Below are positions 7,268 through 49,964 of a stretch of DNA of 64,000 bases, piece after piece (position 1 is the stretch's first letter; each line of letters opens with the position of its first letter). Source of the DNA: Oscillospiraceae bacterium (GTDB lineage Bacteria > Bacillota > Clostridia > Oscillospirales > SIG627). The position numbers and the translations under genes were made by a program. The notes below the pieces were generated by a model, which searched no databases, had not been told where the DNA came from, and worked only from the letters and a program-made list of their open reading frames with translations. The stretch covers positions 6,613-70,612 of the forward strand of contig SVTC01000011.1 of NCBI GenBank assembly GCA_015063985.1, read 5' to 3'.

Positions 7268-7304
7268 GATCCCCGACAGCATAAGCTGTCGGGGATTTCA
7301 TTTT
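7268..7304. terminator. Hairpin between convergent xseB and the 1882-aa gene
   Basis: The stem gatccccgacagc/gctgtcggggat has an ataa loop and a T-rich tail on the plus strand. It sits exactly between the two convergent stop codons. Confidence 0.55.
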
Positions 7305-10300
7305 AAAATGCATTAAAGATCAAGGTAATCACTCTCTTTTGCTCGTCGTATACGTAGGAATAACTTCCCTTAAGACGAAGAGTCTTACTGAGATTATAGT
7401 ACTTTATGATCTCTCCTATACGTTTTTTGGTGACCAAAGCTTCAAAGGTATCCTTGAAGACCCCATCGTTTGCAAAGCTGAGCTGAACGTAAAGCTTTGA
7501 CGCGCTTATACGCTTGCAAACGATATCACGGACCGCTTCAAAGGAGAATTCTTCAAAATACAGACCGTTTCTCACAAAATAGTTGCATTTTGTGGCAGTA
7601 CATTTAGGCAAGGGAAGCTCGTCCTCGGGGATGTGGTCGGGCAATGCGGTAATGTACTTATCGGTGACGCAGAACAGTGCGTAGCTTATTCTGTCGGACA
7701 CGTTTTTCTTTTTATCCGTATTTGAATGGTCGCCCCAGGTGGTATCAAGGTGATAGTATTCACCCTCCAGCTTGACTACGTTCCAGGCGTGGGTATCACT
7801 TGTCACGTATACGCAGGAGATTCCCAAAAGGTTCAGCAAATACTGAGTAGCCTTTGCATATCCCGCACAAACTGCTTTTTTATCTGCAAATACTCCCCAG
7901 ATGCTGCGCAGATCGTCGGGCTCTGTGACCTTGTACTCCCGCTTCTCCTGCTTTTCCAAGCTTATGGTATCGTAATCCACCAGCTTAATTATATTCTCAT
8001 AAACTCTGAGCGTGACCTCGTAGTCACTCATGGTGCTGTCAACGGAGCTTAAGAAGGGCTTTATCGCCTTGTCAATAACCGCGTTGCGCTTATCCGCCTC
8101 TTCTCGGGTCATACAGTACTTGAATTCCAGTGCCTTAACAAGGCCCGTGGCGACATTGAGACGAACCGAACAGCCCTGATTGTACCAGAATATCTCGGGA
8201 TGATCGTTGGTAACGTAATGAACGGCTCTGAACACTCTCTCCTTGGGAAGCTCCGCCGGCAAGGGCTCGATACAGGTCTTGAAGCTTGTCAGTGCATCAA
8301 GAATAGCATCGTAAAGCTTTTTTTCAACCTCGTCCAACAGAGAATAGCAGTATCTTTCGGGCTCTCCGGCAATTCTCTTGGCGGGGCCCTTTAAAGAGGA
8401 GGTGTCCTCGATGGGCTCCTTTCTCTTTTTGGGTACGGGCTTGGGCAAGGGTGTGGTTTCGGCAGGCACGGTATAGCTCACGTTACCGCAATACTCCGGC
8501 TCCAAAGGAAGCTTCGGATTCATAAAGGGAGTGGGCTTTGTGATGACCGTTCCCAAGCTGAAGCCGTAATTTGCCTTGTATCTCAAGAAGCCTCTGCCGT
8601 ATTCATCGTTTCTGAAGGCGGTTATCAGCTCTCTTCGCTTTGCCGCTGCGGGCTCGTTTATGAGGTAAGCGTACTGGATCTCCGCCCACTTTGCCATTCC
8701 CTCATATACCTCAAGATAAAGCTTCTTTCCGTAAGTCTTTTTAATCGCCTTATCGTTAAAGTTGAGATATTGCCAGATATGGGTAAGCTCGTGGCATACG
8801 GTGAGAGCCGCCGCCATTCTCGGTGCCGAATTCTCTACCATAAGCGTATAGCCGCTTTTATCCTTTATGGCAACGCCCAGCACTCTGCCGTCCGTCTTGG
8901 GCGACGGGATAAACGCCTTACCCAGCTTTTTGTTAAGCGTGGCGGTGTTTACCGTACTGACCTTAATACCCACGTCAATACGAATGCCGAAAAAGGCCTC
9001 CATATTTCTTTTTACGTCTTCAAAAAGCTGCCTGAACTCGTCAACTGTCTTTATGGCGCTTCTTGAGCAGCACAAGCATCTGTCTCTTCCGTCTCCAAGA
9101 GTCTCGTATTCAACTCCGTAGATCTCGCAGCCGCAGAAATCGCAATAGCGTACGTCGGGCTTTCCGGGTCTGTAGCTTGCTTCCACTGCGGCAGCTATAT
9201 CTCCAGATTCTCTTACCTGTCTGAGGCTTGAGGAATCCATTCCCAAGCGGCAAAGATATTCGAGGGTAGCGGGCGCATCAACGTCCTCCGGCTCGAAGCT
9301 TCCGCCGTACAAGAGGTAATAACGCTTCTCGTAGGGCTTGCGCTTGAACATCTCCTCTTCATCCTCGGAGTCGGACTCTTGCTCTGCCTCAAAAGGCTTC
9401 TCGTTGGGGAGCAAGGGCTCATCGGCGTGAGCTTCCTCGGGCTTCGGCTCCTCGGGCTTTGGCTCCTCGGGCTTTGGCTCCTCGGGCTTAGGTCCCTCAG
9501 GCTCGGGCTCCTCGGGCTTGGGTTCCTCGGGCTTGGGCTCCTCAGGCTTAGGCTCCTCGGGCTTGGGCTCTTCGGGCTTGGGCTCCTCGGGCTTGGGCTC
9601 CTCGGGCTTCGGCTCCTCAGGCTTGGGCTCCTCGGGTTTGGGCTCCTCGGGCTTGGGCTCCTCGGGCTTAGATTTCTTTTTAAAGATCGAAGCAAAGAAT
9701 TCCTTTATCCTCTGCCACAGACTCTTCTTATCCTTCTTATCCTTCTTCTTATCCTTCTTCTTAGTCTTCTTTTTATCTTTTTCTTCCTTTTCGGGCTCTT
9801 CCCCGTCCTCGGGCAGGGGCTCGAATTCTATGGGAGGCAGAGGCTCGGGCTTTGGAGCAAGGCTCTCCTCCAGGGTATCGTTATGCCAGGAAATATAATC
9901 GCAGACGATCTTCATTATCCTCTCCAGATTTCTTTCCACGGCAACGGTCAGACCCAGATCGAGCTGGCTATCCTCGATAAAGTAAATGCAGTTTTTCTTC
10001 AGCTCCTCGGACTCCGACTCCAGCGAGTAGGTAAGTGGATGGTCTTCCTTTCCCTTAACACCGCAAACCGCACTGATATAGTGGGAATTTTCGGCAAAAA
10101 GGGTACGGAACACCTCGTTGAACAACAAGGTCATTGTGTAGCATACCGAATCCGTAAGGCTGCCCGACAGCTCGGGAAGCTCCACGCAAAGCACCTCTTT
10201 GTTTCTGTAAACTCTCTGAGGTATGGGGCTCTCCTCACTGAAGATAACTCTCTTGGCTTTGGCAAAATCGTTGTAGCGATCCATTCTGAAATAACCGGGA

Positions 10301-12951
10301 GTATCTACGCTGATATCGCAGAACAGCTTCCTTATCGTCATTTCACCTATGGTCTGCACCGCACCCGCACAATCCTGCGCCTTTGATGCACCGATGGTAT
10401 ACCTTCTCAGCTGTCTGTAGCAGGGACGGGAGTTGATATGATCAGCCGCACGGCGAACAAGCACCTGACCCTTAGCGGTAAGATTGGTCATCTGGTAATA
10501 CTTGCCGCCAAAAGTAAAGAACTGTCCGGGCAAAAGCTTTTGATATATATGTCCGCAAAGCTCGCTGCCGAGATAATCTCTGTCGCCCTTTTCGTCCTCG
10601 CAAACGTAGCCCGCACTCTTAAGCTCCTTGGTGCATACGCGGATGAACGCCTCGTCGTCGATGAGCAGAGTAACCTCCGCCCTTCCGTTATTGAGGTTGA
10701 AGCGCTCTCCCTCCTTGATAACGGACGCCGATACCTTTTTGCCCTCGAGACAAAGAGTCCTTCCCTGACATTTTGCTACCGCCTCCCTGTAATTCTCGGG
10801 AAGTGTAAGCACCTCGTCAAGAGAAGCAAAATATTTGTATATTTCAAACCAGAGCTGTGATTTGATGTCGTAGACCTCTATTCCCAGCAGCTCAAGATCC
10901 TTTTTGATCTGCTCGGAATCCGTCTGGTGACGGCAGATGGCAAGCAAGGCACCCAGAACCGTGTTTCTCTCCGTTCTGGTGTGATCTGCCACAATGTAGG
11001 GTATCGCCTTTGCGTCGGCAGTAAATACTCTATCGTTTGCCGCCATATAATCCTTCAGAAGATAATCGCCGCCGATAACGTTGACAAATCCCTGAGAGGT
11101 AGCTCTCGTCGAGAAATCCCTGAGGATCTCAAACATATTAAAGCTCTCATCCTCTACGGTGATATAGGCGTTCTTCTGCTTTGTTGCACTCCACATTCCG
11201 TCGGTGCAGGAGAAGTGATCGTCCATAGCCTCCTGAGAGGTGGGCAATCCGGCATATTTTGTAAGCTCGTAGTAATACTGCTTTGCTATCCAGCGCATAT
11301 CCTTCACGGGGAATGCCTCGCCGCCGTACCATTTGGTGTGGCTGACCTGGTTTTTCAGCGCCGCAAAGCTCAATTCGGTGCCGATTCCCAGATATCTGGA
11401 AACGTTGGGAACAAGACGGTGGTGCAGATGCTCCTCGCCGTTTTCCCAGCACATATAACTGCAGGTACCCTTGTGCTTATCGGTTGCAAAGACCTCGGTA
11501 ATGTCAGTCATCAGGATGTGGCTCATGGCGTCCACCAGTCCGTCGCTGTTTTTGTCGCAAAGACAAAATACCGTTTTCTTGTCTTCCTCGTCCTCCTTGA
11601 TCTTCTTCACAAGAAGGTTCAAGCCTATCTGAGCCGTGCTTACAAGCTTAGTGGGCTCAATTACCACACAGAAGCTTACCTTTTTTATAAAGTCGGAGTT
11701 GGCGTTTCTCAGCTTGTGGTCAAGCACCTGAGATCTGGTTACTATACCGATATCAAGATCCTTTTCCTTGTCCCCGAGAACGCCGATCCTCCACATAAAC
11801 GGAAGCCCCGTAACGGACTCGATACCCTTCTCCAGCCAGGAGATGATCTCCTCCTCCACAGAGTGGCGTCCCAGCACGACCAAAACCTTTGAATGGGCAA
11901 GAAGCGCCTTGTTCATAGGATAGAAGGCATAGGGTATGAGATCGTTATAAAAGGGGTTGTTGAAGAGCACGCTCCTTCCGTTGCAAAGCTCGTTGGAGGC
12001 ATTGATGTAGTTTCTGTCCAGCTCCACTCCCTTGCGGTTGAGCTTATCGTAGAACAATGCGAAGTTCACCGTTGACTGATCGGAGCTGTTGCCCAGCTCC
12101 TTGATAAGATCTCCCACGGTCAGCTCTCCGGAAAAAGAGTTATCTACAGTGGTATTCTCGCTTAACAGTCTGTCGGAGAAAAGATTGCGCAGGAACTTTC
12201 TTATCAGAGAATAGTTTACTGTCTTGTAGGCATCCTCGTCCTCTCCGATTATATCCACCGTATATTCCCTTTGGGTGGCACCGTCCAGGAAGAAATACAA
12301 TTCTCCGATGATGATAACACCGAATACCGGATAAAAAACACTTTCCAGCAGTCCGTTATAGAACAAATAGCGGCTGATGATCATAAGACCAACGCCCATC
12401 ACTACGGAGGTCCAGTAAAAAACCTTCAAAAAGCTTCTTGCCTGGGCATAGCTGTCCTTCAGGCACCAAACCGATTTCTGGGAAAAGAAGCCGTAAAACT
12501 CCTTGGATATCCTGTCAAAGATAAAGGTTCCCGGAGCTATCCTCTTCTTCATTATTCTCAAAGCTATCTTTTTGATTATGATATATATTCCCAGCAATGC
12601 CGCATTGGCAAGATAGAACACCCAGAACTTAAGATCCAATCCCGCTATCACAGACCTTATAAGATCTGCAAGCCAATTGAATGCCGAAGCCAAAAAGCCG
12701 GGCATCCACGAGAAGGAGGCAGGAGCCGCTATCCATCCGCTGAGAGAATTAAGAAGCCACATTATCAAAGAGCAGACAAAGCCGTTGATCCATGCCGCAA
12801 TGGGAATATAGATCAAGGCCACTACCACCGTCAGGGGCTGTCTGGCTCTGTCGGTCTTGTCAAGATTTGCCTTGTGGTTCTTTCTGCACAACCATATAAA
12901 GGGAAGAGAGATCAATAAAAGCTTTAAAAGCATTATTAAAAAATCAATCAT
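7303..12951 (-). CDS. 1882-aa polytopic membrane protein with Lys-rich/PEEPK linker, zinc ribbon, HExxH zincin-like module and transglutaminase-like cysteine-peptidase core
   Basis: This is one uninterrupted ORF. About six hydrophobic helices lie in aa 1-230, and no motif is recognised in aa 230-1040. A KKTKKKDKKKDKKDKK stretch and about 15 PEEPK units follow (DNA 9436-9669). Next come CDFCGC...CLCC (DNA about 9063-9150) and HELTH (8779-8793) with EGMAKWAE downstream. The C-terminal core is C-H-D: AVCAGYA (Cys codon 7867-7869), THAWN (His 7789-7791) and HLDTTWGD (Asp 7744-7746). The start overlaps the upstream stop by 8 nt. Confidence 0.85.
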   Translation of the reverse strand: MIDFLIMLLKLLLISLPFIWLCRKNHKANLDKTDRARQPLTVVVALIYIPIAAWINGFVCSLIMWLLNSLSGWIAAPASFSWMPGFLASAFNWLADLIRSVIAGLDLKFWVFYLANAALLGIYIIIKKIALRIMKKRIAPGTFIFDRISKEFYGFFSQKSVWCLKDSYAQARSFLKVFYWTSVVMGVGLMIISRYLFYNGLLESVFYPVFGVIIIGELYFFLDGATQREYTVDIIGEDEDAYKTVNYSLIRKFLRNLFSDRLLSENTTVDNSFSGELTVGDLIKELGNSSDQSTVNFALFYDKLNRKGVELDRNYINASNELCNGRSVLFNNPFYNDLIPYAFYPMNKALLAHSKVLVVLGRHSVEEEIISWLEKGIESVTGLPFMWRIGVLGDKEKDLDIGIVTRSQVLDHKLRNANSDFIKKVSFCVVIEPTKLVSTAQIGLNLLVKKIKEDEEDKKTVFCLCDKNSDGLVDAMSHILMTDITEVFATDKHKGTCSYMCWENGEEHLHHRLVPNVSRYLGIGTELSFAALKNQVSHTKWYGGEAFPVKDMRWIAKQYYYELTKYAGLPTSQEAMDDHFSCTDGMWSATKQKNAYITVEDESFNMFEILRDFSTRATSQGFVNVIGGDYLLKDYMAANDRVFTADAKAIPYIVADHTRTERNTVLGALLAICRHQTDSEQIKKDLELLGIEVYDIKSQLWFEIYKYFASLDEVLTLPENYREAVAKCQGRTLCLEGKKVSASVIKEGERFNLNNGRAEVTLLIDDEAFIRVCTKELKSAGYVCEDEKGDRDYLGSELCGHIYQKLLPGQFFTFGGKYYQMTNLTAKGQVLVRRAADHINSRPCYRQLRRYTIGASKAQDCAGAVQTIGEMTIRKLFCDISVDTPGYFRMDRYNDFAKAKRVIFSEESPIPQRVYRNKEVLCVELPELSGSLTDSVCYTMTLLFNEVFRTLFAENSHYISAVCGVKGKEDHPLTYSLESESEELKKNCIYFIEDSQLDLGLTVAVERNLERIMKIVCDYISWHNDTLEESLAPKPEPLPPIEFEPLPEDGEEPEKEEKDKKKTKKKDKKKDKKDKKSLWQRIKEFFASIFKKKSKPEEPKPEEPKPEEPKPEEPKPEEPKPEEPKPEEPKPEEPKPEEPKPEEPKPEEPEPEGPKPEEPKPEEPKPEEPKPEEAHADEPLLPNEKPFEAEQESDSEDEEEMFKRKPYEKRYYLLYGGSFEPEDVDAPATLEYLCRLGMDSSSLRQVRESGDIAAAVEASYRPGKPDVRYCDFCGCEIYGVEYETLGDGRDRCLCCSRSAIKTVDEFRQLFEDVKRNMEAFFGIRIDVGIKVSTVNTATLNKKLGKAFIPSPKTDGRVLGVAIKDKSGYTLMVENSAPRMAAALTVCHELTHIWQYLNFNDKAIKKTYGKKLYLEVYEGMAKWAEIQYAYLINEPAAAKRRELITAFRNDEYGRGFLRYKANYGFSLGTVITKPTPFMNPKLPLEPEYCGNVSYTVPAETTPLPKPVPKKRKEPIEDTSSLKGPAKRIAGEPERYCYSLLDEVEKKLYDAILDALTSFKTCIEPLPAELPKERVFRAVHYVTNDHPEIFWYNQGCSVRLNVATGLVKALEFKYCMTREEADKRNAVIDKAIKPFLSSVDSTMSDYEVTLRVYENIIKLVDYDTISLEKQEKREYKVTEPDDLRSIWGVFADKKAVCAGYAKATQYLLNLLGISCVYVTSDTHAWNVVKLEGEYYHLDTTWGDHSNTDKKKNVSDRISYALFCVTDKYITALPDHIPEDELPLPKCTATKCNYFVRNGLYFEEFSFEAVRDIVCKRISASKLYVQLSFANDGVFKDTFEALVTKKRIGEIIKYYNLSKTLRLKGSYSYVYDEQKRVITLIFNAF
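9436..9669 (-). repeat. 15-bp in-frame tandem repeat encoding (PEEPK)n, about 15 units
   Basis: The plus strand reads cttgggctcctcggg-like units back to back. Unit-to-unit differences are mostly third-position synonymous (AAG/AAA; CCC/CCA/CCG/CCT). One variant pair encodes PEEPEPEGPK. Confidence 0.95.
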
Positions 12952-14974
12952 AAAGCTCCTCCCTTGTCAATTCAATAGCTTCAATATAATCTATAGGAAG
13001 CTTGATGGCATTACCCTTGTAAAGATACTCCGTCATGCCCGGCTTTGCCACCTCGTTTATCCCAAAGCTATATCTGCGATTTTGGGTAAAGTCGTACAAA
13101 AACGGCTCGGCATCCGGAAGCTTGCCCTTACGAAGCTTAATGCTCTTGTAGAAAACGTTTTGAGTTTTATATATTTGCGCGCTGATATAATGCTCGTGCT
13201 TTTTAAGTATCCCCAATCTTTCGTTGCGGTCGTGCTCGCATGCATTGATAACGGAATGCTCCCTCATCACGTTGCAGGTGGAGCTGAGGTAATTTCCAAA
13301 GGATTCAAGATATCCCTTCACTCCGGAAATTATACCGCCGATAACGTAATTGAAATGCTTAAAGCTATCCACGAGCCTCTTTTTAAACAGCCGCAAGGCA
13401 ATATACCCCGCACCCAAGAATACCAGAAGCGCTCCGGCGGTAAGACATATATTAGTCATTACCGCGGCAACCGAGCCGGTGTTGGTGAAAAGCAAGGGCA
13501 AAAAGCCTATAAAATAAGCCGCCAATGCCACAGATCCGATCACAACGGTCTTCTTCCTGGTCATTCGCTTTGATATCATCCTGCGAATGCGCTTATCCGC
13601 CTCCTCGACCTGCTCTCTGCTCTCCTTACCGTCGAAAAGCCCCGGCTCGGAAAGCTTGACCGCCTTTTCCTCCTCCTCAAGGAGTCTGATGCTGACGTCC
13701 TCCAGCTGATACTCGTTCAAAGCACCTGCTCTGTCGTCGTCAATAAAGCTCTTGCTTCTCAAGGTAACCGTGGTAGCGGTCTTTACGGCTCTTTTGGGCT
13801 CGCGAAGATACTTCACCAGCTCCTTACGGATACGCTGATACTGATCGTCCCAGAAGCGCTGCTCGTCCTTGGGGCAGTTTTTGGACATTCCTATGCCCTT
13901 GTAGGAGCAGTAAAGCTCCTTGGTATCGAATTCACTGTCCACCTCGACGGGTATATACTCATCGGAGATAAACAGCTCCTCCACCGTTTTACGGCTTAAT
14001 GCCTCCTTCTTAAGCTGAGCTATTCTTGACTGCGCTCCCTTGACGTTTCTCAGGGTAGCATAGAGCTTGGCAAGGTAGCCGTAGCAAAAATCAGCCATTC
14101 TTTCCTTATGCAGCTTAAGTGCAAGTCTGTATACCCTATCCTGTCTGAAGCAGTCGTCGGGCTGCTCGTTCACGCAAAGAATAAGCACAAGACTCAAAAA
14201 CTCAAACCAATCGCTCTCTACACGCTCTCCCTTTACGTAAGTAACGTCACTCAACACAAAGCGAAGCTTGTCAGAATAATAGTTTTCTTGGACAAAACGG
14301 CTGTATTCGTGCTCTTCGCCGCTGTTCCAAGCGTTTTTGCAGGCTCTGATGTCATCCACACAGATCCTTTCCGCGAAGGCAATAAGCTCTGCGGGCTTTC
14401 TTTTCAGCTCGCCCTCACAGCAAAAATGCTTTTTAAAGAACAGACTTTTTTCAACCGCCTGCCTCTCAAGCTCAAGCTCAAGAGGATCTACGCCCTTTTC
14501 CTTAAGACCCTCAAAATATCCCGGATCGTCAATATCTCCCAAGGATGCATATTCCTCGGAAAGATCCACCAGCTCGGTGGAGGGAGTCCCCGAAAGCCAA
14601 AGAGAGAGCTTTGCCAGAGGATTGTCCAGAGATGCCTCCCTGGCCATCCTCTTGGCCTCGCGGTATTGAAGCACGTCCTCCCCGTTTGCCAAAACGGGCA
14701 TAGAGCTGTCCGTTTTGACAAAATCAAAGGGGTTCTGTTGTGAAAGCAGCTCGGAAGAAAAGATGGTTGCATCAGCTATAGCAACTGCGCGCCATTTAGG
14801 CTTGTCAGCTATTATGCCCTTCAGATCGGGCAGAGCTTCATCCAAAGTATCCGCGTCCGGTCTCCAATAGCAAAAGGCATATTCCTTGCTCTTCATATAC
14901 GGTGCAAGAAACTCGCCGTAAGTTTGCTTACAGCTCTGCCCGAATGCTTCGGAGCATATAATTACCGTGAACAC
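12944..14974 (-). CDS. 676-aa hypothetical protein with two adjacent transmembrane helices (operon member)
   Basis: Long ORF on the operon strand. Hydrophobic segments VVIGSVALAAYFIGFLPLLF and VMTNICLTAGALLVFLGAGYIAL lie near aa 480-530. I recognise no catalytic motif. Its stop overlaps the start of the 1882-aa gene (ATGATTGA). Confidence 0.8.
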   Translation of the reverse strand: MFTVIICSEAFGQSCKQTYGEFLAPYMKSKEYAFCYWRPDADTLDEALPDLKGIIADKPKWRAVAIADATIFSSELLSQQNPFDFVKTDSSMPVLANGEDVLQYREAKRMAREASLDNPLAKLSLWLSGTPSTELVDLSEEYASLGDIDDPGYFEGLKEKGVDPLELELERQAVEKSLFFKKHFCCEGELKRKPAELIAFAERICVDDIRACKNAWNSGEEHEYSRFVQENYYSDKLRFVLSDVTYVKGERVESDWFEFLSLVLILCVNEQPDDCFRQDRVYRLALKLHKERMADFCYGYLAKLYATLRNVKGAQSRIAQLKKEALSRKTVEELFISDEYIPVEVDSEFDTKELYCSYKGIGMSKNCPKDEQRFWDDQYQRIRKELVKYLREPKRAVKTATTVTLRSKSFIDDDRAGALNEYQLEDVSIRLLEEEEKAVKLSEPGLFDGKESREQVEEADKRIRRMISKRMTRKKTVVIGSVALAAYFIGFLPLLFTNTGSVAAVMTNICLTAGALLVFLGAGYIALRLFKKRLVDSFKHFNYVIGGIISGVKGYLESFGNYLSSTCNVMREHSVINACEHDRNERLGILKKHEHYISAQIYKTQNVFYKSIKLRKGKLPDAEPFLYDFTQNRRYSFGINEVAKPGMTEYLYKGNAIKLPIDYIEAIELTREELYD

Positions 14975-15024: not shown

Positions 15025-18000
15025 TCACAGAGCCTGAAGATCGTGACCGTTGGGCAGAAGCTGATCGACCAAGCGCTTGATGCACTTATGGATAGCAACA
15101 AGAGCATCGTTGCTTTCGGCGGGAACACCCATAGACAGGAATTCTCCCACCTCGGCAGATCTATAGTTTTCAAGAAGCAGATTGTGCTGCTTGACCACGA
15201 TCTGTGCCATATGGATCTTAACGTCATTGGACTTCTCCTTGGCAGAGATCTGGTGCTCGATGGCGTTGATTATAGCCTCGGTCATGGAACGGATCTCGTC
15301 CACGTCCTCGGATACCATCAGAGAATTGTAATAAATGATCGGGATCTCAAATACGGAGGTCGGTCTTGCATCACTGTTGGCAAGCTCGGGGATATTGGCA
15401 TCGTGGAACATCTTCCTTCTGGAAAGACCTGCCAAAGCCTTTGCAAAGTTGGAGTTATTAAATCCGGCACGGCTTCTTCTGTCCTCCTCGCGCTGCTTCT
15501 CTGCAATGCACTTGATGGACTTAACGGCCGCACGGTCAAAGTAAAGACTGTCAAGCACCTCGTCAAACTTATCGCAGAGAGTTCCGTTACTTACGGTAAA
15601 GTTCTTGGGATTATCATGCTCGTCATAGTAACGGTATACAAGAGTTCTGTCATCGTACGCAGAGGGCTGATATCTCTGGATGGTGTTGTAGATAAAGCCG
15701 TAGAAGAACGCCTGATGGATATCCTGCATCAGATGTGTCTGATAATCCAGATCAAGCTCGGGCATAACGGAAATGGAGTTCCAGCTCTTGTCGATATGGG
15801 GAGTGATAAGAGCATTGAGCTTGCAATCGGGGCCGATGTTCTCCATATACTCCTGGTAGCTTGTGAAATAGTCGCCAACCTCAACGTTGCTGTCGATAGA
15901 GGCAATATCCACGCACTTGCTCAGCTCATCCTTGTCCATAGAGGGGCTGCAGAGCTTGGCAAGCTGAATGGGAGTCAGACCGTAAACGGAGCGGAAGAAG
16001 TGGAGCTCATACTTGGAAATGGAGGGAGCTGAGTTCTTTTCCTCGAGAAGCTTGTTGACCTGCACTCCGGAGAAGTCACAAAGCTTATCGCTGTATGCAA
16101 TGGCATTGACCTCTCTCTCCTCGTCAAAGTCGTTCTTACTGATAGAGGGAGCGGCAAGGTTCTTACCTCTGTTAAGCATCTTTACGATGTAGTTGAGGAC
16201 CTCCTCGTTCTTTCCTCTGAGAGCTCTGAAGCGATTCTTCTTTTCGTCGCTTTCGCTCTGCGCGATCTTCAGATCGCAGCTTGTTTCGTATTCAAGCTTC
16301 ATAGCCTGAAGAATATCCTTGTCGATAACGTTGTCGCAGACCTTTTCCACTGCTTCCTTGTAGGAATTGATGATGACGTCGTCGAAAATGTCAATAGCCA
16401 CCTCGGAGGAAAATTCGTCGAACATATTCATTTCGTCTATAAGGGTGTTCTCACAGATGGCCTTGAAGATATCGGCGTAAAGCTGATCGGTAGAGCCCTC
16501 TCCCTTTGCGGGATTTGCTCTCTTTGCCAAAAGCTCGAGATATTCCTTCTTACCGAAGAGATTGTATACACAGTCACCGGTCTTGTACTTGAGCTCGCCG
16601 ATTATATCGTCACGCATCTTCTCGATGGTAAACACCTTGGACTGGAATGCATTGTAGAACTTCTCGTAGGTGTCGCAGATCATATCCACGCGCTTGAGAG
16701 CGATGGAGATGATAACGGAGTTTACAAGCTTGGTATATGCATCCTTGACCTCCTCGTAGAAGGAGTTGAGCTTCTTACGGCAGAAGGCGATCTCCTCTGC
16801 GTTCTTTTCCTGCTGACCCTCGTTCTTCTTGGATGCCATCATATCGATGGAGATACACATCTGGCTGAGGTTGGTCTCGTTTCCGCCTACGCCCTTGATG
16901 TTGAATTCCTTCTGCTTTTCGGGATCCTGAGGATTGATAATAGCATTGATGGTAGAGGAAAGCTCCGCTCTTTCGGGGGGAAGGTTCTTCTTCTGAGCCT
17001 CCTTCAAATATGCACTGAGCTTGTAAAGCAGGTATCTTGCGGCGTTGGGATGCATTGCACGGTTTCCGCCGGAGAGATATGCTCCCAGTCTGTGGGGCTC
17101 AAGAGTCTTGCCGATAATATCCTCGCTCTCGAAGAGCTCCTTGATAAAGCTCTCGGTCATCTTCTTGATCTTACCGGAATGGTCGATAAATCGGCTGAGA
17201 CGGTCAACGTCGCTGAAGGCCTTTGCATACTGACCTATCATGGGGCTTACACTGTCGGCAAACTGATCCATCTTGTCCTTGTAGCTGGTCAGATCCTCCT
17301 CACTGAGAGTAAGGTTGGAGCCGATAATATTCTTCGCTCTTGTGGAGATCGCCTCAAAATATTCCTTTGCAGCCTCCTCCATGCAAGCTGTGAAGGGATC
17401 GCCGTCGTCGCCTGCAACTGCCGGCTTATTCTTCAGAAGGTCTGCCTTTCTTTCCAAAAAGTCCTTCTTCAGATCAAGAGTAAACTGATCGCTTCCGGTC
17501 TCCACGTAGCTTACGTAGCGGTCTCTGAGCTTGGGCTCGTCGTTGGACGCCATGGGATCGTTCATCCACTTGGTGTATTCCTTGTTGAACTTGTTATCGT
17601 AGATCATCCAGGATCTTTCGATGGCCTTTTCTCTCTGCTCGTCGGTCATATCCTTGGCAGAGGAAACGCCCATTATGGAGTTCTGCGCCCAATCCAATGC
17701 TATGTAGTCCCTGATCTTCTCATAGGGATAACGGATGATAGCCGCGCCTGCTCCGCCAAAACGGCATCTGCCCAGCTTTTCGGGGTTGGAGAATTCCTTT
17801 ATAACGTTATCCTCCTTGCTGTTTGCGGAGGATTTCATGGGTCCTATGGTCTGCTCGTAGATACACTGAGCCGCATAGTTCTCATACTGCTTGAGGTTGC
17901 CCATATTCTTTTGGTTGGAGTCGCTTCTCTCCAGAAGGAACAGGAAGTCGAAGGGAAGGTTGGAAAGATTCTCCATTCCGTTGCCGGAGGGAACGCTGAT

Positions 18001-18747
18001 GTGCAGATCCTTATATCTCTTCAGTCTGGGCTCGTACTCGAAGGCGTTGGATGCCTTCATCATAAAGGCGTTGATCTCCTTTATGGTGGCGTAGCCGTTT
18101 CTTCTCTGGCTCTTTCTTTCGCTGGCGGAATCGATAACGGTATCCATAACGCTGGGCATTACGATAAATCCGCGGATTATAGCGGCAGATTCGGGATAGT
18201 TGTTCTTAAGATACTGACGGATGAGCATTGCAACGGGCAGAGTGATACCGGAGCCTGTTCCGCCGGTGGAGGTGGAGGCGATGATGACCTTCACGGCTCT
18301 GTTTTTATCGGAGCCGTTTTTCATATAAAGGCTGTCGATAGCCTTGTACAAAGCGGCGATCTTGCCCTGCTTGATGGTGGCGTTAAGAGCAAGACGGCTG
18401 ATGGCTCTGACCTGACCGGCGCCCTCGCTTACGGTCTTACCGTCCAGGATCTTGTTCTCGGGGAACCACTCGTTCTTGGCAACGGTGTCGTTTCTCAGAT
18501 AAGCGGCAACGCTTCTGGAGGAGGAGGTCTGGATAGCAACGATGCTGGGGCCGTTTTCTATCCTCTCAAGGTCGTTAACGTCGGTATCCATGGTAACGAA
18601 CTGAACGTTCTCCAAGGAATCATATACACAGCGCTCTCTCACGCCCTTGATGATCCTTGATCCTATACCGCCGAGTCCGACAAACAGAGTCGCTTCCACT
18701 TTGTTGGGTTGAAGTCTTTCTTTTTTCATGTTTTGTTCCTCTTTCAT
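15025..18747 (-). CDS. 1240-aa protein with N-terminal tubulin/FtsZ-superfamily GTPase-like domain and about 900-aa helical extension
   Basis: Three motifs fit the superfamily: FVGLGGIGSRI (T1-like GxGxxG), SEGAGQVRAISR (FtsZ T3-like GAG...R) and IIASTSTGGTGSGI (core of the tubulin signature GGTGSG, DNA 18247-18264). The true start is probably the second ATG at 18729, which follows AAAGAGGAA. Confidence 0.75.
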   Translation of the reverse strand: MKEEQNMKKERLQPNKVEATLFVGLGGIGSRIIKGVRERCVYDSLENVQFVTMDTDVNDLERIENGPSIVAIQTSSSRSVAAYLRNDTVAKNEWFPENKILDGKTVSEGAGQVRAISRLALNATIKQGKIAALYKAIDSLYMKNGSDKNRAVKVIIASTSTGGTGSGITLPVAMLIRQYLKNNYPESAAIIRGFIVMPSVMDTVIDSASERKSQRRNGYATIKEINAFMMKASNAFEYEPRLKRYKDLHISVPSGNGMENLSNLPFDFLFLLERSDSNQKNMGNLKQYENYAAQCIYEQTIGPMKSSANSKEDNVIKEFSNPEKLGRCRFGGAGAAIIRYPYEKIRDYIALDWAQNSIMGVSSAKDMTDEQREKAIERSWMIYDNKFNKEYTKWMNDPMASNDEPKLRDRYVSYVETGSDQFTLDLKKDFLERKADLLKNKPAVAGDDGDPFTACMEEAAKEYFEAISTRAKNIIGSNLTLSEEDLTSYKDKMDQFADSVSPMIGQYAKAFSDVDRLSRFIDHSGKIKKMTESFIKELFESEDIIGKTLEPHRLGAYLSGGNRAMHPNAARYLLYKLSAYLKEAQKKNLPPERAELSSTINAIINPQDPEKQKEFNIKGVGGNETNLSQMCISIDMMASKKNEGQQEKNAEEIAFCRKKLNSFYEEVKDAYTKLVNSVIISIALKRVDMICDTYEKFYNAFQSKVFTIEKMRDDIIGELKYKTGDCVYNLFGKKEYLELLAKRANPAKGEGSTDQLYADIFKAICENTLIDEMNMFDEFSSEVAIDIFDDVIINSYKEAVEKVCDNVIDKDILQAMKLEYETSCDLKIAQSESDEKKNRFRALRGKNEEVLNYIVKMLNRGKNLAAPSISKNDFDEEREVNAIAYSDKLCDFSGVQVNKLLEEKNSAPSISKYELHFFRSVYGLTPIQLAKLCSPSMDKDELSKCVDIASIDSNVEVGDYFTSYQEYMENIGPDCKLNALITPHIDKSWNSISVMPELDLDYQTHLMQDIHQAFFYGFIYNTIQRYQPSAYDDRTLVYRYYDEHDNPKNFTVSNGTLCDKFDEVLDSLYFDRAAVKSIKCIAEKQREEDRRSRAGFNNSNFAKALAGLSRRKMFHDANIPELANSDARPTSVFEIPIIYYNSLMVSEDVDEIRSMTEAIINAIEHQISAKEKSNDVKIHMAQIVVKQHNLLLENYRSAEVGEFLSMGVPAESNDALVAIHKCIKRLVDQLLPNGHDLQAL

Positions 18748-18771: not shown

Positions 18772-20895
18772 TCAGATCCTGTTGATTCGAATCTTAAATT
18801 TCACTTCTGCGCCGTTTCCGTTGAAATACTTGATAACGGTCTCGTCTCCCAGTGTAAATACCTGATCGTCCGAGCCTACCGCCTCGCCGTCTATCTTAAG
18901 TCCGGATGCCACGGCAGCGCCCGTTGAAACACCGCTGACCTTTACCGTAGCCGATGAAGCGGAGCGCTTGTAGTTGGGACAGCTCTTGATGCCCGCCGCG
19001 GTAAATATGATAATGCCTACGGAATTGGTGATGCAGATCATTTCATCTATGCGCACCGCAATAAAGTGATCCGCCCAACGCCCTACAGCGGGAAGGTATT
19101 CGCAAAGCTCCACCGTATCAGGGAACACCTTATGCGTTCTCCACCAATAGATCAATGCGGCGATAAGGGCAATGGCAAGCAGGACCAGCAGGCAGATTAT
19201 TACGTATATGCCGAATCTTTCAAACCAGCTTCTGCCCTCCTTGATCTGTACGGTATGGTCGCAGGATCCGCTCCATACCTCGTTTTCCTTAATGTCGCTT
19301 ATGGATATCTTGATATCCACGCTATCGTAATCGTCAAGGATCAGCTCCTGCCCCTCAAGAGTGGGGGTTATTGCGATTATTCCGATCTCGGAGGTCTTTT
19401 CGGCCTTGAAATCGCCCATTTTAAATTTTTCTTCACTGGTAAGAGCGACCTTGATGCTTCCCAGAGAATTCCACTGCTCCTGAGTGAACTCCTTGCCGTC
19501 AAGGGTAAGCTTGAATTTTATGGGATCCTTGGGGTCCAGACCGTCGGCAAAAACGGTGTACTCCGTATCCTCCGACACCTGAAAGCCTATCTCTTTGTTC
19601 TTATATACTCTGTATTCAAGATAAGTGCTTACCGTATTGTATTCAAGATAGCTTGCAGAGGCGCTGATGGTCAGATCTCCCTCTTCAATGGTGATGGTAT
19701 CACCCGAAGCATATTGCTTTTCGTGGGTCACGCCGTTATTTGTGACCGTGGCGGTATAGGTTATATCTCCCAAAAGCTCGCTGTCGGGGACGGCGTTGAG
19801 AGTGCCCGCCTTAACGAAGCCAAACTTCAAGGTGTAGCTTCCTTCCTTAAGTCCGTCGGCGTTTTTGATGATGCTTCCTTCGTTGTCAACCAGAAATGCT
19901 TCGATCTCAACGTTCGGCTTATAGTAGATCTCCACAGTCTTTGCGTTTTTAACGTCTATTGTGTAGTCGCCCGCATCAAAATCTCCCTCAAACTTCAAAA
20001 GCTTTCCCTGAAGACTTTTGTCGTAAACGTAAGGTCTTCTGCTGTATCTTTTGTCAGCCTGTGTGGAATACATTACCTCAACGGGAGAAGCGGAGGAGGT
20101 ATACTCTGCGGACTTCGGTCCGCCGCTGATCTTGCCGATCTCAACGTTTTCGCCCTGAGCAAAGACGACCAGCTCGCTCATGGGAACGTCGAAGGAAAAC
20201 TTCTTGGTCGCCATATTAACGTCAAGCTTATGAGTGTTGAATATTCTTGTGCAGATTCCGGTGATCTTGTTAAGGATCTGGTCACTGGTCGCCGCCTTTT
20301 CGCAATATATATCCTTGCTTTCATCACCGGTGATCATAGCGGCAGAAGCACCCATGCTCAAAAACATCACCTTGACGTCTGAGCTCTTTTCTCGGAAAAA
20401 GGAGTCCGCAACCAAAAGCCCCATATCAAATTCGCCGTCGGTAAGGACAACAAGCCACTTCTCGTCGACCTGAGCGTGGGTAAGATCCTCGTAGGCCTTA
20501 CGAACGGACATAAAAGGAGTTCCCGCATTTTCGGTAATGGTATTGTGAAGTATGTCAACGTTAGCCTGAGTGGGATCGCTTCCCTTTATGGTGATCCTCG
20601 GTCCCACACAATCCTCAAGAGCCAAGTTGTCATAGGCATAATCGTTCATGTAATAGATACTCATCGTATCATTCTTGCCCAGCATTGCCGCAAAAACTTC
20701 CATTGCGTATTTTGCCTGGCACCAGGTGTCGTGATAATTTTCACCGCCGCTGGTCCACATACTGGTAGAATCATCGTATACCACGTTGATCTGACGGCTG
20801 GGCTCAGCGCTTGCCGCTTGCACGGGGAAGCAAAGACAGCTTGCCAAGGTCGCCACTGCAAGTACTATCGCACACAGCCTGAAAAGTCTTTTCAT
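18772..20895 (-). CDS. Secreted, C-terminally membrane-anchored von Willebrand factor A (vWA) domain protein
   Basis: I chose the start at 20895 (MKRLFRLCAIVLAVATLASC) because AGGAGG lies directly upstream. The signal peptide has a possible lipobox (LASC). The MIDAS motif is intact: DDSTS (20761-20775), NAGTPF and VVLTDGE. A long beta-rich region follows, then one TM helix (FGIYVIICLLVLLAIALIAALIYWW) and a tail of about 110 aa. Confidence 0.8.
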   Translation of the reverse strand: MKRLFRLCAIVLAVATLASCLCFPVQAASAEPSRQINVVYDDSTSMWTSGGENYHDTWCQAKYAMEVFAAMLGKNDTMSIYYMNDYAYDNLALEDCVGPRITIKGSDPTQANVDILHNTITENAGTPFMSVRKAYEDLTHAQVDEKWLVVLTDGEFDMGLLVADSFFREKSSDVKVMFLSMGASAAMITGDESKDIYCEKAATSDQILNKITGICTRIFNTHKLDVNMATKKFSFDVPMSELVVFAQGENVEIGKISGGPKSAEYTSSASPVEVMYSTQADKRYSRRPYVYDKSLQGKLLKFEGDFDAGDYTIDVKNAKTVEIYYKPNVEIEAFLVDNEGSIIKNADGLKEGSYTLKFGFVKAGTLNAVPDSELLGDITYTATVTNNGVTHEKQYASGDTITIEEGDLTISASASYLEYNTVSTYLEYRVYKNKEIGFQVSEDTEYTVFADGLDPKDPIKFKLTLDGKEFTQEQWNSLGSIKVALTSEEKFKMGDFKAEKTSEIGIIAITPTLEGQELILDDYDSVDIKISISDIKENEVWSGSCDHTVQIKEGRSWFERFGIYVIICLLVLLAIALIAALIYWWRTHKVFPDTVELCEYLPAVGRWADHFIAVRIDEMICITNSVGIIIFTAAGIKSCPNYKRSASSATVKVSGVSTGAAVASGLKIDGEAVGSDDQVFTLGDETVIKYFNGNGAEVKFKIRINRI

Positions 20896-20957: not shown

Positions 20958-20986
20958 ATTATACATTTTCTATTAATATTTGTCAA
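20958..20986 (-). promoter_or_regulatory. Consensus SigA-type promoter of the vWA/tubulin-like operon
   Basis: The minus strand reads TTGACA (20981-20986), a 17-nt spacer, then TATAAT (20958-20963), about 60 nt upstream of the ATG at 20895. Confidence 0.7.
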
Positions 20987-21079: not shown

Positions 21080-21108
21080 TTGACAAAACGGGTTTTTTTT
21101 TGCATAAT
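21080..21108 (+). promoter_or_regulatory. SigA-type promoter for the divergent 21138 gene
   Basis: TTGACA (21080-21085), a 17-nt spacer ending in TG, then CATAAT (21103-21108). Confidence 0.55.
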
Positions 21109-21137: not shown

Positions 21138-22421
21138 ATGCAAACCAAGCTTATAAAAAGAAAGCCCCTGGGAAACAAGAACAGAAAATACCGCCAGGAT
21201 AACTTTATCATCTCCACCTTCCGTGCAGATACCAACGATCTTCGCCGCGGTATTCCCGCCGCAAAGGAGCTGAATTTCAATATGGTCGAATTCGGCTGGG
21301 TCCCTCCGGAAAGAAGCCTTGAATGTATAGTTGCCTGCGAGCAGGCTGAGATCGACGGCATCTTCCAGAATTGGGAGGCCTTCGGCGGCTTCCAGGAAAC
21401 CAAGGGTATGGGTGGAGTGAACCCGGAAAAGCTTAAGGAATATATCGCCTACACCCAAAAATTCCGCCACGTAAAGGGCTATTACGTTTGGGATGAGCCC
21501 CTTGCCGACGAAAAGATCGCCGCTGCCGCAGAGCAGGTAAAGCTGATAGAAGAGCTTGACCCCAAGAGACTGCCCTTCACCGTTGCCATCCCCAGCTACA
21601 ATCCCACCCACACCTGGGAAAACGGACTCTTTCCCAAGTATCTAAGACAGTATGCCGACGTTATCGAGCCTGCCGTTATGAGCCTTGACTACTATCCCTT
21701 CAGCCCCAGAAGAGCAGATGCACCCGACCAGCTTGACTCCTCCAAGCTCTTTTTGGACATCGCCCTTCTCAGACAGATCGCTCTGGAAAAGGATATGCCC
21801 ATGTGGTTCTACTTCCAGACTCAGGACGATCCCGCCCACGGCACCTACAAATGCCTCAGTCCCGAGAAGATGCGTATGCAGCAGTACAACGCCATCCTTT
21901 ACGGCGCAAAGGGTCTGCAAAACTACAACATCTTCCAGGGTGCACTTAACGACGACGGCACTCCCGGACCTCTCTATTGGTTCACAAAGGACATCAACCA
22001 CCGCTGTATGATGTGGGGCAACACCCTTATGGCGCTCAGTTCCAAGCACGTTTTCCATTCCCCCGAGGTCTTGAAAAACAACCCCAACTTCGATCAGTTC
22101 CGCGAGAGCCCCAAGGACAGCGCGGTGCTCTCTTGCGACGAGCTTCCCTTCCGTTGCTCCGTGGGCGAATTTGAGGACAGCGAGGGCAACGTATATATCT
22201 TCGTTCAGAACAGAGACTACTACGCTTCCCACGTATTCAACCTCCCCTTCAAGACTGCTATGCGTCTCTACGAGGTAAGTCCTCTGGACGGCTTCCAGTA
22301 CGTCTATGCAGACAACACCGAAAGCTTCACCCGCAAAATAGAGCCCGGCGATGCATACCTGTTCAGAGTACAGAAAGCCGATGAGGACGCATACCTTATC
22401 GACTACGTTTTGGAAAAATAA
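21138..22421 (+). CDS. Hypothetical protein, possibly a TIM-barrel glycoside hydrolase
   Basis: A 427-aa ORF with good coding character that neighbours a GH20 enzyme. The alternating beta/alpha pattern and the YVWDEP motif only hint at a glycosidase fold. Confidence 0.4.
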   Translation: MQTKLIKRKPLGNKNRKYRQDNFIISTFRADTNDLRRGIPAAKELNFNMVEFGWVPPERSLECIVACEQAEIDGIFQNWEAFGGFQETKGMGGVNPEKLKEYIAYTQKFRHVKGYYVWDEPLADEKIAAAAEQVKLIEELDPKRLPFTVAIPSYNPTHTWENGLFPKYLRQYADVIEPAVMSLDYYPFSPRRADAPDQLDSSKLFLDIALLRQIALEKDMPMWFYFQTQDDPAHGTYKCLSPEKMRMQQYNAILYGAKGLQNYNIFQGALNDDGTPGPLYWFTKDINHRCMMWGNTLMALSSKHVFHSPEVLKNNPNFDQFRESPKDSAVLSCDELPFRCSVGEFEDSEGNVYIFVQNRDYYASHVFNLPFKTAMRLYEVSPLDGFQYVYADNTESFTRKIEPGDAYLFRVQKADEDAYLIDYVLEK

Positions 22422-29957: not shown

Positions 29958-30015
29958 AATAGATCTTCCTTTCAAAAGGTGTTTTTTTCTGCTCTATGAC
30001 GGGCTAAAGAAAAGG

Positions 30016-30582
30016 TCAACTGTTTTGCAATTTGTTCGCTTTTCTTTTTGCACTTCTGACTCGTTTCTTTTCGGCTTTTTTATAAATCTTGTGCTTGGCT
30101 TTTATGTATTCCACTTCTCCGCAAACAGGAAATGCCAGCATTATAAGCCCTATAATCACAATACCAACATAAGCTGTATCAATCTCCTCGGAGGTCATTT
30201 TATTGTTGTCTATCACAATGTCATTGATATAAATTTCCACCACCCAAGGTAATTTGTCCATTTTACGATACTCTACTTTTTGCCCCTCCAAGAGCTCCGC
30301 AAGTTGATCAAGGTCATAACCGATTGCATTGTATAGGTCTTTGGGTAGCCACGGACATACAAGATGAAATTGCTCTCCATCAGACATTTCAACAATGGTT
30401 ACATCTTTTCCGCTGGCATAATAAACATCCGCAACAGTACCACTTAAAACAGAGGTATTATCCTCACTTGGTTTAGAATATTTATCAAACATGATTACAC
30501 AGAATGATATAATTACGGCTATTGCCACTACTGTTAGCAACGAAGAGACTATAATATGCTTTTTAAATTCACTTTTTGTCAA
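30016..30582 (-). CDS. Hypothetical membrane protein (N- and C-terminal TM helices)
   Basis: A TTG start follows GGGGGTGA. A TTGATT-N17-TATAAT promoter lies at 30606-30634 on the minus strand. The hydrophobic segments are IIVSSLLTVVAIAVIISFCVIMF and YVGIVIIGLIMLAFPV. Confidence 0.6.
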   Translation of the reverse strand: MTKSEFKKHIIVSSLLTVVAIAVIISFCVIMFDKYSKPSEDNTSVLSGTVADVYYASGKDVTIVEMSDGEQFHLVCPWLPKDLYNAIGYDLDQLAELLEGQKVEYRKMDKLPWVVEIYINDIVIDNNKMTSEEIDTAYVGIVIIGLIMLAFPVCGEVEYIKAKHKIYKKAEKKRVRSAKRKANKLQNS

Positions 30583-30629
30583 TAATAGTCACCCCCTTCG
30601 AGAGTATTATACCGCACTTTCGCAAATAA

Positions 30630-30813
30630 ATCAAGGCGCAAGCCTTGTATATCATCCGCAACTTGTTGCGGTATATCATCAATGCGGGGCATTGTATATC
30701 ATCAAGCCGCAGGAGGATGCACGCTAAAGCGTGATGAGATGCAAGGGCGGTGAGCCGCCCTTGATGATATACACCACGCTTTGCGCGGTGATGATATACC
30801 AAGCCTGCGGCTT
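30630..30813 (+). repeat. Hairpin/10-mer repeat element, copy A
   Basis: Three direct TATATCATC(A) boxes lie at 30648, 30672 and 30695, each preceded by a short perfect hairpin. Two inverted boxes TGATGATATA lie at 30762 and 30789. The 3' part of about 130 nt is nearly identical to copy B. Confidence 0.85.
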
Positions 30814-30951
30814 GGATAAAAAAATCCGACAAGTCGAAACTTGTCGGATTTTTTGTATAAAGGCTACGAAAAAGATATTTTTTGAGAATTGCATTAAGGA
30901 TTTGAACTCAAACGGGGTTAGATGATTGAAAATTCAAATAGACGACATCAA

Positions 30952-31455: not shown

Positions 31456-31484
31456 GGTTAAAACTCCATTCGCGGTTATATAAA

Positions 31485-31700: not shown

Positions 31701-31726
31701 AATATACGCGCCTCCTTTCTAACAAC

Positions 31727-31781
31727 ATTATAGTACAAATATTTACTAAAGTCAATAGTAAATTTATTTACTTGGTATAAT
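31727..31781. promoter_or_regulatory. Divergent promoter pair with a central palindromic operator
   Basis: Minus strand: TTGACT (31750-31755), 17-nt spacer, TATAAT (31727-31732). Plus strand: extended -10 TGGTATAAT (31773-31781). The perfect inverted repeat ATTTACTA-n7-TAGTAAAT (31741-31763) spans both -35 regions. Confidence 0.55.
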
Positions 31782-31816
31782 ATTTACAAATAAGTAACAA
31801 AACAGGGGAACAACAA

Positions 31817-49958: not shown

Positions 49959-49964
49959 TAAATA

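Follow-up and report, generated by a model that had tools for sequence, protein, structure and literature searches.

The window considered here is a stretch of 64,000 nucleotides (nt) from an Oscillospiraceae bacterium (assembly GCA_015063985.1, contig SVTC01000011.1, positions 6,613 to 70,612 of the forward strand), and its minus strand carries a gene, here termed gene B, for a tubulin-like protein of more than 1200 amino acids (aa). A preliminary description, made from the letters of the sequence, had placed an open reading frame (ORF) of 1240 aa at 15025-18747 and had given its product a tubulin-type GTPase head with a very long tail of another kind; the ORF is present as claimed, and the protein is a typical member of FtsZ-like 1 (FtsZl1), a divergent branch of the tubulin/FtsZ superfamily. 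Gene B is the second of four co-directional genes that form one transcription unit in the order A-B-C-D, with the following elements (all positions refer to the window).

20958..20986, minus strand: match to a sigma-70-type promoter, TTGACA-17 nt-TATAAT (12/12), 5' of gene A
18772..20895, minus strand: gene A, 707 aa when started at the ATG at 20895, which is preceded by AGGAGG; its ORF reaches to 20946
15025..18729, minus strand: gene B, FtsZl1/Tubulin_2; translation from the second ATG gives 1234 aa, the full ORF to 18747 gives 1240 aa
12944..14974, minus strand: gene C, 676 aa, with a cytoplasmic N-terminal domain of ~470 aa, a two-helix transmembrane hairpin, and a cytoplasmic C-terminal domain
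7303..12951, minus strand: gene D, coding for a giant membrane protein of 1882 aa
7269..7296, minus strand: terminator-like hairpin of 12 bp, including 8 G-C pairs, directly past the gene D stop (hairpin on both strands)

A conserved four-gene cassette

The promoter match and the terminator-like hairpin bracket genes A-D, and the stop codon of gene C overlaps the start of gene D by 8 nt (12944-12951). This overlap is nearly universal among the related loci, and its recurrence suggests translational coupling of C and D. Transmembrane helices are predicted in the products of A, C, and D and in no part of B. A Walker A motif recurs in none of the four proteins (70-83 homologues each), and the head of gene B is, judged by its motifs, the only recognisable nucleotide-binding site of the cassette.

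A genome search with motif patterns of this FtsZl1 subfamily, run on a set representing 185,579 species, confirmed a relative in 192 genomes, and 80 of these loci were fetched, all from Clostridia or related Bacillota of animal guts and rumen (Acutalibacteraceae, Oscillospiraceae, Ruminococcaceae, Lachnospiraceae, and Erysipelotrichaceae). Wherever the contig is long enough, the 86 loci, 80 of them from species-level genomes, show the genes in the order A-B-C-D, both in three near-identical contigs of the same species and in relatives with unrelated flanks whose gene B is 59%, 42%, and 41% identical. Measured over 60 loci as identical residues per query length, the median identity to the proteins of the window is lowest for A (21%), followed by C (33%), B (36%), and D (40%).

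The flanking genes are unrelated from locus to locus, and an enrichment test found no recurrent Pfam family among them (maximum 2/85 neighbours). An all-against-all BLAST revealed an unannotated gene of ~700 aa that adjoins the cassette in eight loci (L026, L031, L034, L040, L041, L044, L054, and L085), upstream in some and downstream in others, and that is probably the family named "B13" by Makarova & Koonin; further recurrent unannotated neighbours are ~600 aa (5 loci) and ~155 aa (6 loci) long, and all three are absent beside the cassette of the window. The sole match in a phage collection is MT836542.1 (L087, "Bacteriophage sp.", UNVERIFIED), a 9.8-kb contig on which ORFs of 269, 739, and 732 aa are followed by an FtsZl1 homologue. 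Its gene order is that of RUMLAC_01531..01528 of Ruminococcus lactaris, and the contig is therefore almost certainly a piece of bacterial chromosome deposited under a phage name.

The operon type has been on record for years. Additional file 5 of Makarova & Koonin 2010 lists vWA-FtsZl1-"B5"-"B12" in R. lactaris ATCC 29176 (RUMLAC_01529..01526) and in "Bacteroides" capillosus ATCC 29799 (BACCAP_04124..04121; vWA 861, FtsZl1 1183, B5 658, and B12 1435 aa), and the window locus, which comes from the metagenome-assembled genome of an uncultured member of the Ruminococcaceae/Oscillospiraceae, is a new member of it; here genes C and D take, by cassette position, the places of families "B5" and "B12". 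Gene order and partner sizes agree (707/1234/676/1882 aa in the window, 732/1136/678/1418 aa in R. lactaris), and so does the build of the FtsZl1 protein itself (N-terminal head with T1-T4, long helical region, C-terminal module, ~1100-1250 aa). Conversely, gene D of the window adds a transglutaminase-like domain and a PEEPK linker, and the helicase fold described below for gene D went unrecognised for B12 in the 2010 analysis. Gene B itself is no discovery, being a member of a Pfam family with relatives named at NCBI and an operon type in the 2010 supplement; since family and operon type have been known since then, the interest of the finding as first posed is modest.

Family, fold, and motifs of the tubulin-like protein

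The translated product of gene B most likely begins at the second ATG (18729), as the preliminary description had favoured: a GAGG lies 8 nt 5' of it, only an A/T-rich stretch precedes the first ATG, and an identical public protein is annotated from the second ATG with 1234 aa. The parts of the protein referred to below are these.

17674..18687, minus strand: tubulin/FtsZ-like GTPase head, aa 21-358 (PF13809, AlphaFold model, Foldseek)
18652..18684, minus strand: T1-type loop FVGLGGIGSRI, aa 22-32
18394..18429, minus strand: T3-type loop SEGAGQVRAISR, aa 107-118
18247..18270, minus strand: T4 signature STGGTGSG, aa 160-167
17806..17820, minus strand: S310-K-E312-D313-N314, candidate T7/H8 catalytic segment at the start of the helix after the H7-like core helix
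15025..17673, minus strand: non-tubulin tail, aa 359-1240, mostly helical

The expected tubulin-like profile match is obtained in a Pfam scan, where aa 21-358 match PF13809 Tubulin_2 over nearly the whole profile (positions 1-355/356) with 189.6 bits and E 1.2e-55 (cut-off 27 bits). PF00091 Tubulin scores 30.7 bits on the head, just below its cut-off of 33, and the scan finds no FtsZ_C, Tubulin_C, or other Pfam domain in the protein. A database search with gene B returned 750 homologues, the best 119 of which are 1198-1289 aa long, 37-72% identical, and cover 94-100% of the query; the best come from metagenome-assembled genomes of Clostridia, Oscillospiraceae, and Ruminococcaceae, and one homologue bears the NCBI name "tubulin-like doman-containing protein". 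The head alone, searched exhaustively with HMMER against 1.84 billion cluster representatives, has 1,893 matches at E <= 1e-3, 682 at <= 1e-10, and 288 at <= 1e-30. Among the best 150 of these 1,893, nearly all measure 1000-1400 aa and carry the head N-terminally, so that the long tail is the usual architecture of the family. The preliminary description had left two identities open, that of a divergent member of a tubulin-like family and that of a new fusion; the former thus holds and the latter is rejected.

PF13809 corresponds to FtsZl1 of Makarova & Koonin 2010 (Biol Direct 5:33), whose members normally join a tubulin-like head to a tail of ~700-1000 residues; in a phylogenetic study of later date, the group named "FtsZ-like" is taken to be the same as Tubulin_2, and family trees set FtsZl1 apart from FtsZ, TubZ, and tubulin. 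Gene B shares the features of this family, namely the full profile match, a GTP-binding head with T1 and T4, a length of more than 1000 aa with a helical tail, and an operon partner with a vWA domain. Few branches of the tubulin/FtsZ superfamily are as divergent as FtsZl1.

The order of the T1, T3, and T4 loops within the first 200 aa is as first described, whereas their spacing (T1 to T3 ~85 aa, T3 to T4 ~53 aa) is wider than in FtsZ and nearer to that of tubulin, in agreement with the family-specific inserts reported for FtsZl1 (Makarova & Koonin 2010, Biol Direct 5:33). Conservation of the motifs was measured twice, on 118 close homologues and on 118 further cluster representatives with heads 31-59% identical, and T1, T3, and T4 are conserved in both sets. 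In the 118 full-length homologues (37-73% identical), G24/G26/G27/G29, EGAGQxR, and GGTG(S/A)G show little or no variation. Among 119 diverse heads, T1 keeps G24, G26, G27, and G29 in 118, T2 keeps D54-T55-D/N56 in at least 113, T3 keeps (S/T)-E-G-A-G-Q-x-R in 114-119, and T4 keeps G-G-T-G-(S/A)-G in 118-119; N217, Y219, and E224 are kept in 118-119 and S310-x-E312-D313-N314 in 113-118. The head holds a complete and conserved set of tubulin-type nucleotide-binding loops.

The fold points the same way. An AlphaFold2 model of aa 7-1206, built on a 118-sequence alignment, has a mean predicted local distance difference test (pLDDT) of 88.4 and a predicted template-modelling score (pTM) of 0.79. 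In the top 50 PDB matches listed by Foldseek, all are tubulin, FtsZ, CetZ, or TubZ, bar one low-probability match at rank 26: the best is CetZ 3zid (E 1e-4, target TM-score 0.45), followed here for comparison by FtsZ 5zue and 6y1v (target TM-score 0.47-0.50) and by TubZ and alpha-, beta-, and gamma-tubulin, each with probability 1.00. A viral fold library gives phage tubulin as the only match better than E 1e-3, and its weaker matches are for the most part of low probability and pair the tail with coiled-coil or SMC-type proteins. The two outcomes named beforehand as refuting the tubulin identity, a fold of another kind and motifs that vary among homologues, were thus both looked for, and neither was seen. 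Sequence and profile searches of the PDB with gene B give no meaningful match; an hhalign comparison of the gene B profile with a sequence of Escherichia coli FtsZ aligned only S1-S3 with a probability of 2% and, as it rests on a single unverified template, was not used.

The 2010 alignment of the FtsZl1 head reached only H5 (Makarova & Koonin 2010), and the model extends beyond it. Its secondary structure, assigned with DSSP, runs through an S6-like strand and a 16-residue H7-like helix to a helix that starts with S310-K-E312-D313-N314; downstream of this H8-like helix come one strand, one helix, and then helices only. In FtsZ, the acidic residues of the T7 loop/H8 have the form NxDxxD, and tubulin has a counterpart there. 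The S-x-E-D-N segment lies where these residues are expected and is, as placed by the model, a putative T7-like catalytic element. Its location at the T7 position is one of two new points of this analysis, the other being the helicase fold of gene D, and offers a clean separation-of-function mutant.

The tail had been characterised as helical and charged with no recognisable motif. It does consist mostly of helices, but that account missed a strongly conserved, beta-containing module at ~aa 870-1080, an alpha/beta unit with the motifs ITPHxDxxWN and VSNxTxCDxxxEVLDxLYFDR. No PDB or viral fold match to the tail better than E 1e-3 was obtained in the whole-model searches. The pTM of 0.79 suggests, at the level of the model, that the protein is arranged compactly and is not a free extended coiled coil.

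These data also bear on the possibility that gene B is a canonical or plasmid-type cytomotive tubulin, i.e., a division paralogue of FtsZ or a TubZ/PhuZ-like segregation motor with a mere extension. TubZ, FtsZ, and phage tubulin are indeed among the fold matches, and the protein shares with FtsZ, CetZ, TubZ, and tubulin the fold of the GTPase domain, the T1-T4 order, the GGTGSG of the tubulin signature, and an acidic motif after the core helix at T7/H8. In contrast, it is three times longer, carries inserts between T1 and T4, stays below the PF00091 cut-off with neither FtsZ_C nor Tubulin_C, has S-x-E-D-N in place of NxDxxD, and has no recognisable activation subdomain, FtsZ C-terminal peptide, or TubR partner. 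The operon context differs as well: its only other members are A, C, and D, in which no TubR-like or division-gene domain is found (a centromere-like repeat was not specifically searched for), and the cassette lies on chromosomes, not on plasmids or phages, the sole "phage" contig being bacterial-like. With FtsZl1 separate from FtsZ, TubZ, and tubulin in the family trees, such an identity is very improbable, and the domain, operon, and replicon evidence effectively refutes both the FtsZ paralogue and the TubZ-type segregation system.

The membrane partners

Gene A codes for a protein with a signal peptide, an extracellular vWA domain, a beta-rich stalk, a single transmembrane helix at aa 563-581 (nt 19153-19209), and ~125 aa of cytoplasmic tail, and its vWA domain holds an intact metal-ion-dependent adhesion site (MIDAS).

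20761..20775, minus strand: MIDAS motif DxSxS (DDSTS) of gene A

The MIDAS residues D41, D42, S43, S45, T126, and D153 do not vary across 64 homologues. Of these, 27 weakly match PF00092 VWA, and NCBI gives one homologue the name "VWA domain-containing protein". The gene in the same position of the R. lactaris and "B." capillosus cassettes was assigned to COG2304 vWA (Makarova & Koonin 2010), while sequence and profile searches of the PDB with gene A returned nothing meaningful. Gene A is the fastest-evolving member of the cassette, and its similarity only weakly tracks that of gene B (Spearman 0.27, 60 loci), with outlier loci (L010, L053, and L080) in which gene A is far more similar than gene B predicts. 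The alignments thus suggest fast evolution or exchange of this surface-exposed protein, and the pattern could reflect diversifying selection or receptor-gene exchange.

The transmembrane hairpin of gene C (nt 13388-13546) is central and has basic residues on both sides, which would place both large domains in the cytoplasm. Gene C has no similarity in Pfam, NCBIfam, or the PDB, and a Pfam scan of 61 homologues gave only weak noise in the transmembrane region.

Gene D is the most composite of the partners, and it is divided as follows.

12277..12951, minus strand: N-terminal multi-transmembrane region, aa 1-225, about 5-6 helices
9862..12270, minus strand: predicted superfamily 2 (SF2) helicase fold of the MrfA/YprA type with a DUF1998-like region, aa 228-1030
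9415..9669, minus strand: 15-nt tandem repeat in 17 copies, coding for a (PEEPK)n linker
8686..9144, minus strand: zinc ribbon (CxxC...CxxC), then the zincin motif HELTH ... E1417
7744..8034, minus strand: transglutaminase-like (papain-fold) core with the triad C1695/H1721/D1736

No other segment of the cassette is as conserved as the middle part (aa 228-1030), whose identity reaches 68% where that of gene B is 35-45%; it finds no match in Pfam (47 homologues) or in sequence and profile searches of the PDB. Its AlphaFold2 model, built on a 111-sequence alignment (pLDDT 90.5, pTM 0.90), matches MrfA (YprA) of Bacillus subtilis (6znp_A) in Foldseek with E 8.3e-26 and TM-scores of 0.52/0.55, in an alignment that spans the whole chain (838 columns, 748-residue target); the next matches are Hel308, Pol-theta helicase, Brr2, RecQ, BLM, and WRN. 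The two proteins agree in the fold over the entire MrfA chain and in the architecture of two RecA domains plus DUF1998, whereas gene D has neither a Walker A nor a DExH motif nor the cysteines of DUF1998, is held in the membrane by its N-terminal helices, and has peptidases, not nucleases, as fusion partners. Specifically, Walker A (GxGK[ST]) is missing from 109/111 homologues and DExH from 108/111, NNPF stands at the P-loop position, I-E-P-S/T closes the Walker B strand, and the DUF1998-like part (segment aa 500-803) has no conserved Cys and hence no four-Cys zinc site. As modelled, the middle of gene D is a helicase fold with lost ATPase motifs. YprA-family helicases form the core of the defence systems DISARM, Druantia, Dpd, and ARMADA, with DrmA/DrmB of DISARM and DruE of Druantia as named components, and the 2025 survey of the family that describes them (PMC12458937) mentions neither a tubulin- nor a vWA-linked branch; judged by this one survey, a membrane-anchored and peptidase-fused pseudo-helicase is, with moderate confidence, apparently unreported.

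Both C-terminal domains of gene D are predicted, from their conserved residues, to be active peptidases. In the zincin, H1387, E1388, and H1391 are invariant in 47/47 homologues and E1417 is kept in 46/47 (D in the other), the zinc-ribbon cysteines C1270, C1273, C1292, and C1295 are invariant, and the region weakly matches DUF6782 and DUF6055 of Pfam. The transglutaminase-like domain scores 22.7 bits with PF01841 (cut-off 23) and E 4.6e-18 with NF045980, and its triad is kept in 19/19 homologues that carry the domain. A BLAST comparison of 72 complete homologues of gene D finds the transmembrane and middle regions in nearly all and the zincin part in 65/72, the zincin of the remaining relatives being otherwise encoded by a separate downstream ORF, and it detects the optional transglutaminase-like part in 30/72. 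Loci with the zincin and/or the transglutaminase-like part as a separate ORF immediately downstream are L013, L029, L035, L038, L068, L079, and L084, and gene D thus behaves as a modular fusion. The linker varies too: the protein is 1857, 1877, or 1882 aa long in three otherwise identical contigs (L001-L003), and the differences of 5 and 25 aa equal 1 and 5 repeat units, indicating copy-number variation between strains.

Candidate functions of the cassette

The closest described systems combine similar parts. Kaur et al. 2020 (eLife 9:e52696) classed neighbourhoods of Firmicutes and Actinobacteria that join a tubulin with a coiled coil and extracellular-vWA proteins as nucleoside triphosphate-dependent conflict systems, centred on a P-loop GTPase (GAP1-N2/DO-GTPase). 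The cassette shares with them a tubulin protein with a helical extension, a membrane protein with an extracellular vWA domain, the location near the membrane, and peptidase-type candidate effectors. Conversely, it has neither the GAP1 P-loop GTPase nor the FNIII-repeat protein, and it has one tubulin gene and one vWA gene where those systems have two of each. Its proteins give no GTPase match in Pfam or NCBIfam, the core GAP1 component included, and as no Walker A motif recurs, the cassette lacks the defining feature of the Kaur systems, though it resembles them.

Taken with the family, the fold, and the partners, these likenesses lead to a reading that we hold at a probability of roughly 45%, namely that the FtsZl1 protein is a GTP-gated assembly module linking a surface vWA receptor to cytoplasmic peptidases, with a role in surveillance or conflict. 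GTP binding, assembly-dependent hydrolysis, and polymerisation by gene B are suggested by the conservation of its motifs, and the physical contacts, the direction of signalling, and the biological role proposed here are likewise what we infer for the cassette. Specifically, the cytoplasmic parts of A, C, and D would bring the gene B protein to the membrane, where GTP binding would drive its head-to-tail self-association. The S-x-E-D-N segment after the H7-like helix would act as the T7 loop through a contact in trans, which would make hydrolysis dependent on assembly. The GTP-gated assembly would then work as a switch or a threshold, coupling the binding of a ligand by the extracellular vWA domain to the activation or positioning of the gene D peptidases inside the cell, possibly to sense invaders or envelope damage and not to divide the cell.

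Three features make a surveillance or conflict role somewhat more likely than constitutive membrane remodelling: the fold of the YprA type, peptidase "effectors" that come as modules, and a surface component that evolves fast. The conflict-type reading also follows the classification of tubulin and extracellular-vWA neighbourhoods as conflict systems by Kaur et al. 2020. Several observations weigh against it. The neighbours of the cassette are housekeeping genes and not defence islands; in the window, the surrounding genes are chromosomal (xseA/xseB, a TsaD-like gene, serA-like dehydrogenases, GH20, pheST, metG, gap, and recD2). Plasmid and phage collections hold hardly any trace of the cassette (two weak plasmid matches and the one "phage" match described above), a PADLOC-DB v2 scan of A, B, C, and D gives no match at E <= 0.01, and no nuclease or pore-forming effector is identified in the cassette. 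The literature search found no biochemical, structural, or genetic study of FtsZl1/Tubulin_2 (a paper on planctomycete division merely cites the family) and no experiments on tubulin plus vWA defence systems. Moreover, the four-stranded C-terminal activation subdomain of FtsZ and tubulin is not recognisable in the model, so that assembly, if any, may be non-canonical; Makarova & Koonin 2010 likewise noted no canonical C-terminal subdomain in FtsZl1.

The missing or replaced activation subdomain leaves room for a gene B that does not polymerise and instead serves as a GTP-dependent monomer/dimer switch, its tail acting as a scaffold that regulates the gene D peptidases and S-x-E-D-N acting in cis or in a dimer. 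The pTM of 0.79 over 1200 residues would fit this arrangement, in which the head may pack against the tail. To our knowledge, however, every characterised member of the tubulin/FtsZ superfamily hydrolyses through an inter-subunit T7-type contact, and the T7-like acidic pair of gene B is as conserved as the GTP-binding loops, which makes the canonical in-trans mechanism the simplest explanation. A switch of this kind is unlikely.

Makarova & Koonin proposed instead that FtsZl1 polymerises beneath the membrane, to which the vWA protein and the two other membrane proteins tether it, and that its filaments are the core of a machine for constitutive membrane remodelling or for vesicle formation; the gene D peptidases would then help the complex, or proteins of the envelope, to mature or to be turned over. 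The tubulin/FtsZ fold of gene B is typical of cytoskeletal polymers, A, C, and D are all membrane proteins, and the chromosomal housekeeping context, with no link to defence islands or mobile elements and no PADLOC matches, speaks for this hypothesis as well; the 2010 inference, moreover, drew on many FtsZl1 neighbourhoods (Makarova & Koonin 2010). However, the C-terminal subdomain that makes the longitudinal contacts in FtsZ and tubulin is not recognisable, and no ESCRT, dynamin, or lipid-binding domain was found in the cassette. The distribution is patchy, with 192 genomes in the set searched, which argues for an accessory function, and a defence-family helicase fold, variable peptidases, and a fast-evolving surface component are unexpected in a housekeeping machine. 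On balance, constitutive remodelling is a somewhat doubtful possibility.

Within the GTP-gated surveillance reading, a bolder and rather doubtful version is that the cassette is an undescribed membrane-embedded immune or surveillance system, in which the nucleotide-dependent assembly step would fall to a tubulin-fold GTPase and not to a P-loop NTPase. Its sensors would be the vWA/MIDAS receptor and the ATPase-dead YprA-like fold, the latter responding, for instance, to incoming nucleic acid at the membrane, and FtsZl1 polymerisation driven by GTP would turn on the zincin and transglutaminase-like effectors. If true, it would give a function to the FtsZl1 family, an orphan for 15 years, and would tie it evolutionarily to the helicases of DISARM, Druantia, and Dpd. 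The choice between cytoskeleton and immune switch is now directly testable in cultivable relatives such as R. lactaris and Pseudoflavonifractor capillosus ATCC 29799 (the "Bacteroides" capillosus of the 2010 listing).

Lastly, the rest of the window offers a few observations of its own. A 427-aa ORF with no Pfam match (21138-22421, plus strand) runs divergently from the promoter region of the cassette and is faced by a promoter-like TTGACA-17-CATAAT (21080-21108, plus strand). A gene ~6 kb away from the cassette (26533-28731, minus strand) codes for a protein of 732 aa that has Cna_B and GBS104-like tip-pilin immunoglobulin (Ig) domains and is likely a component of a Gram-positive pilus or adhesin. 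Two stretches, 30001-32000 and 48001-50000, have a lower guanine-cytosine (GC) content, 0.36 and 0.38 against ~0.49 elsewhere, and may be acquired islands; the second holds a BspA-type leucine-rich-repeat protein (48445-49878).

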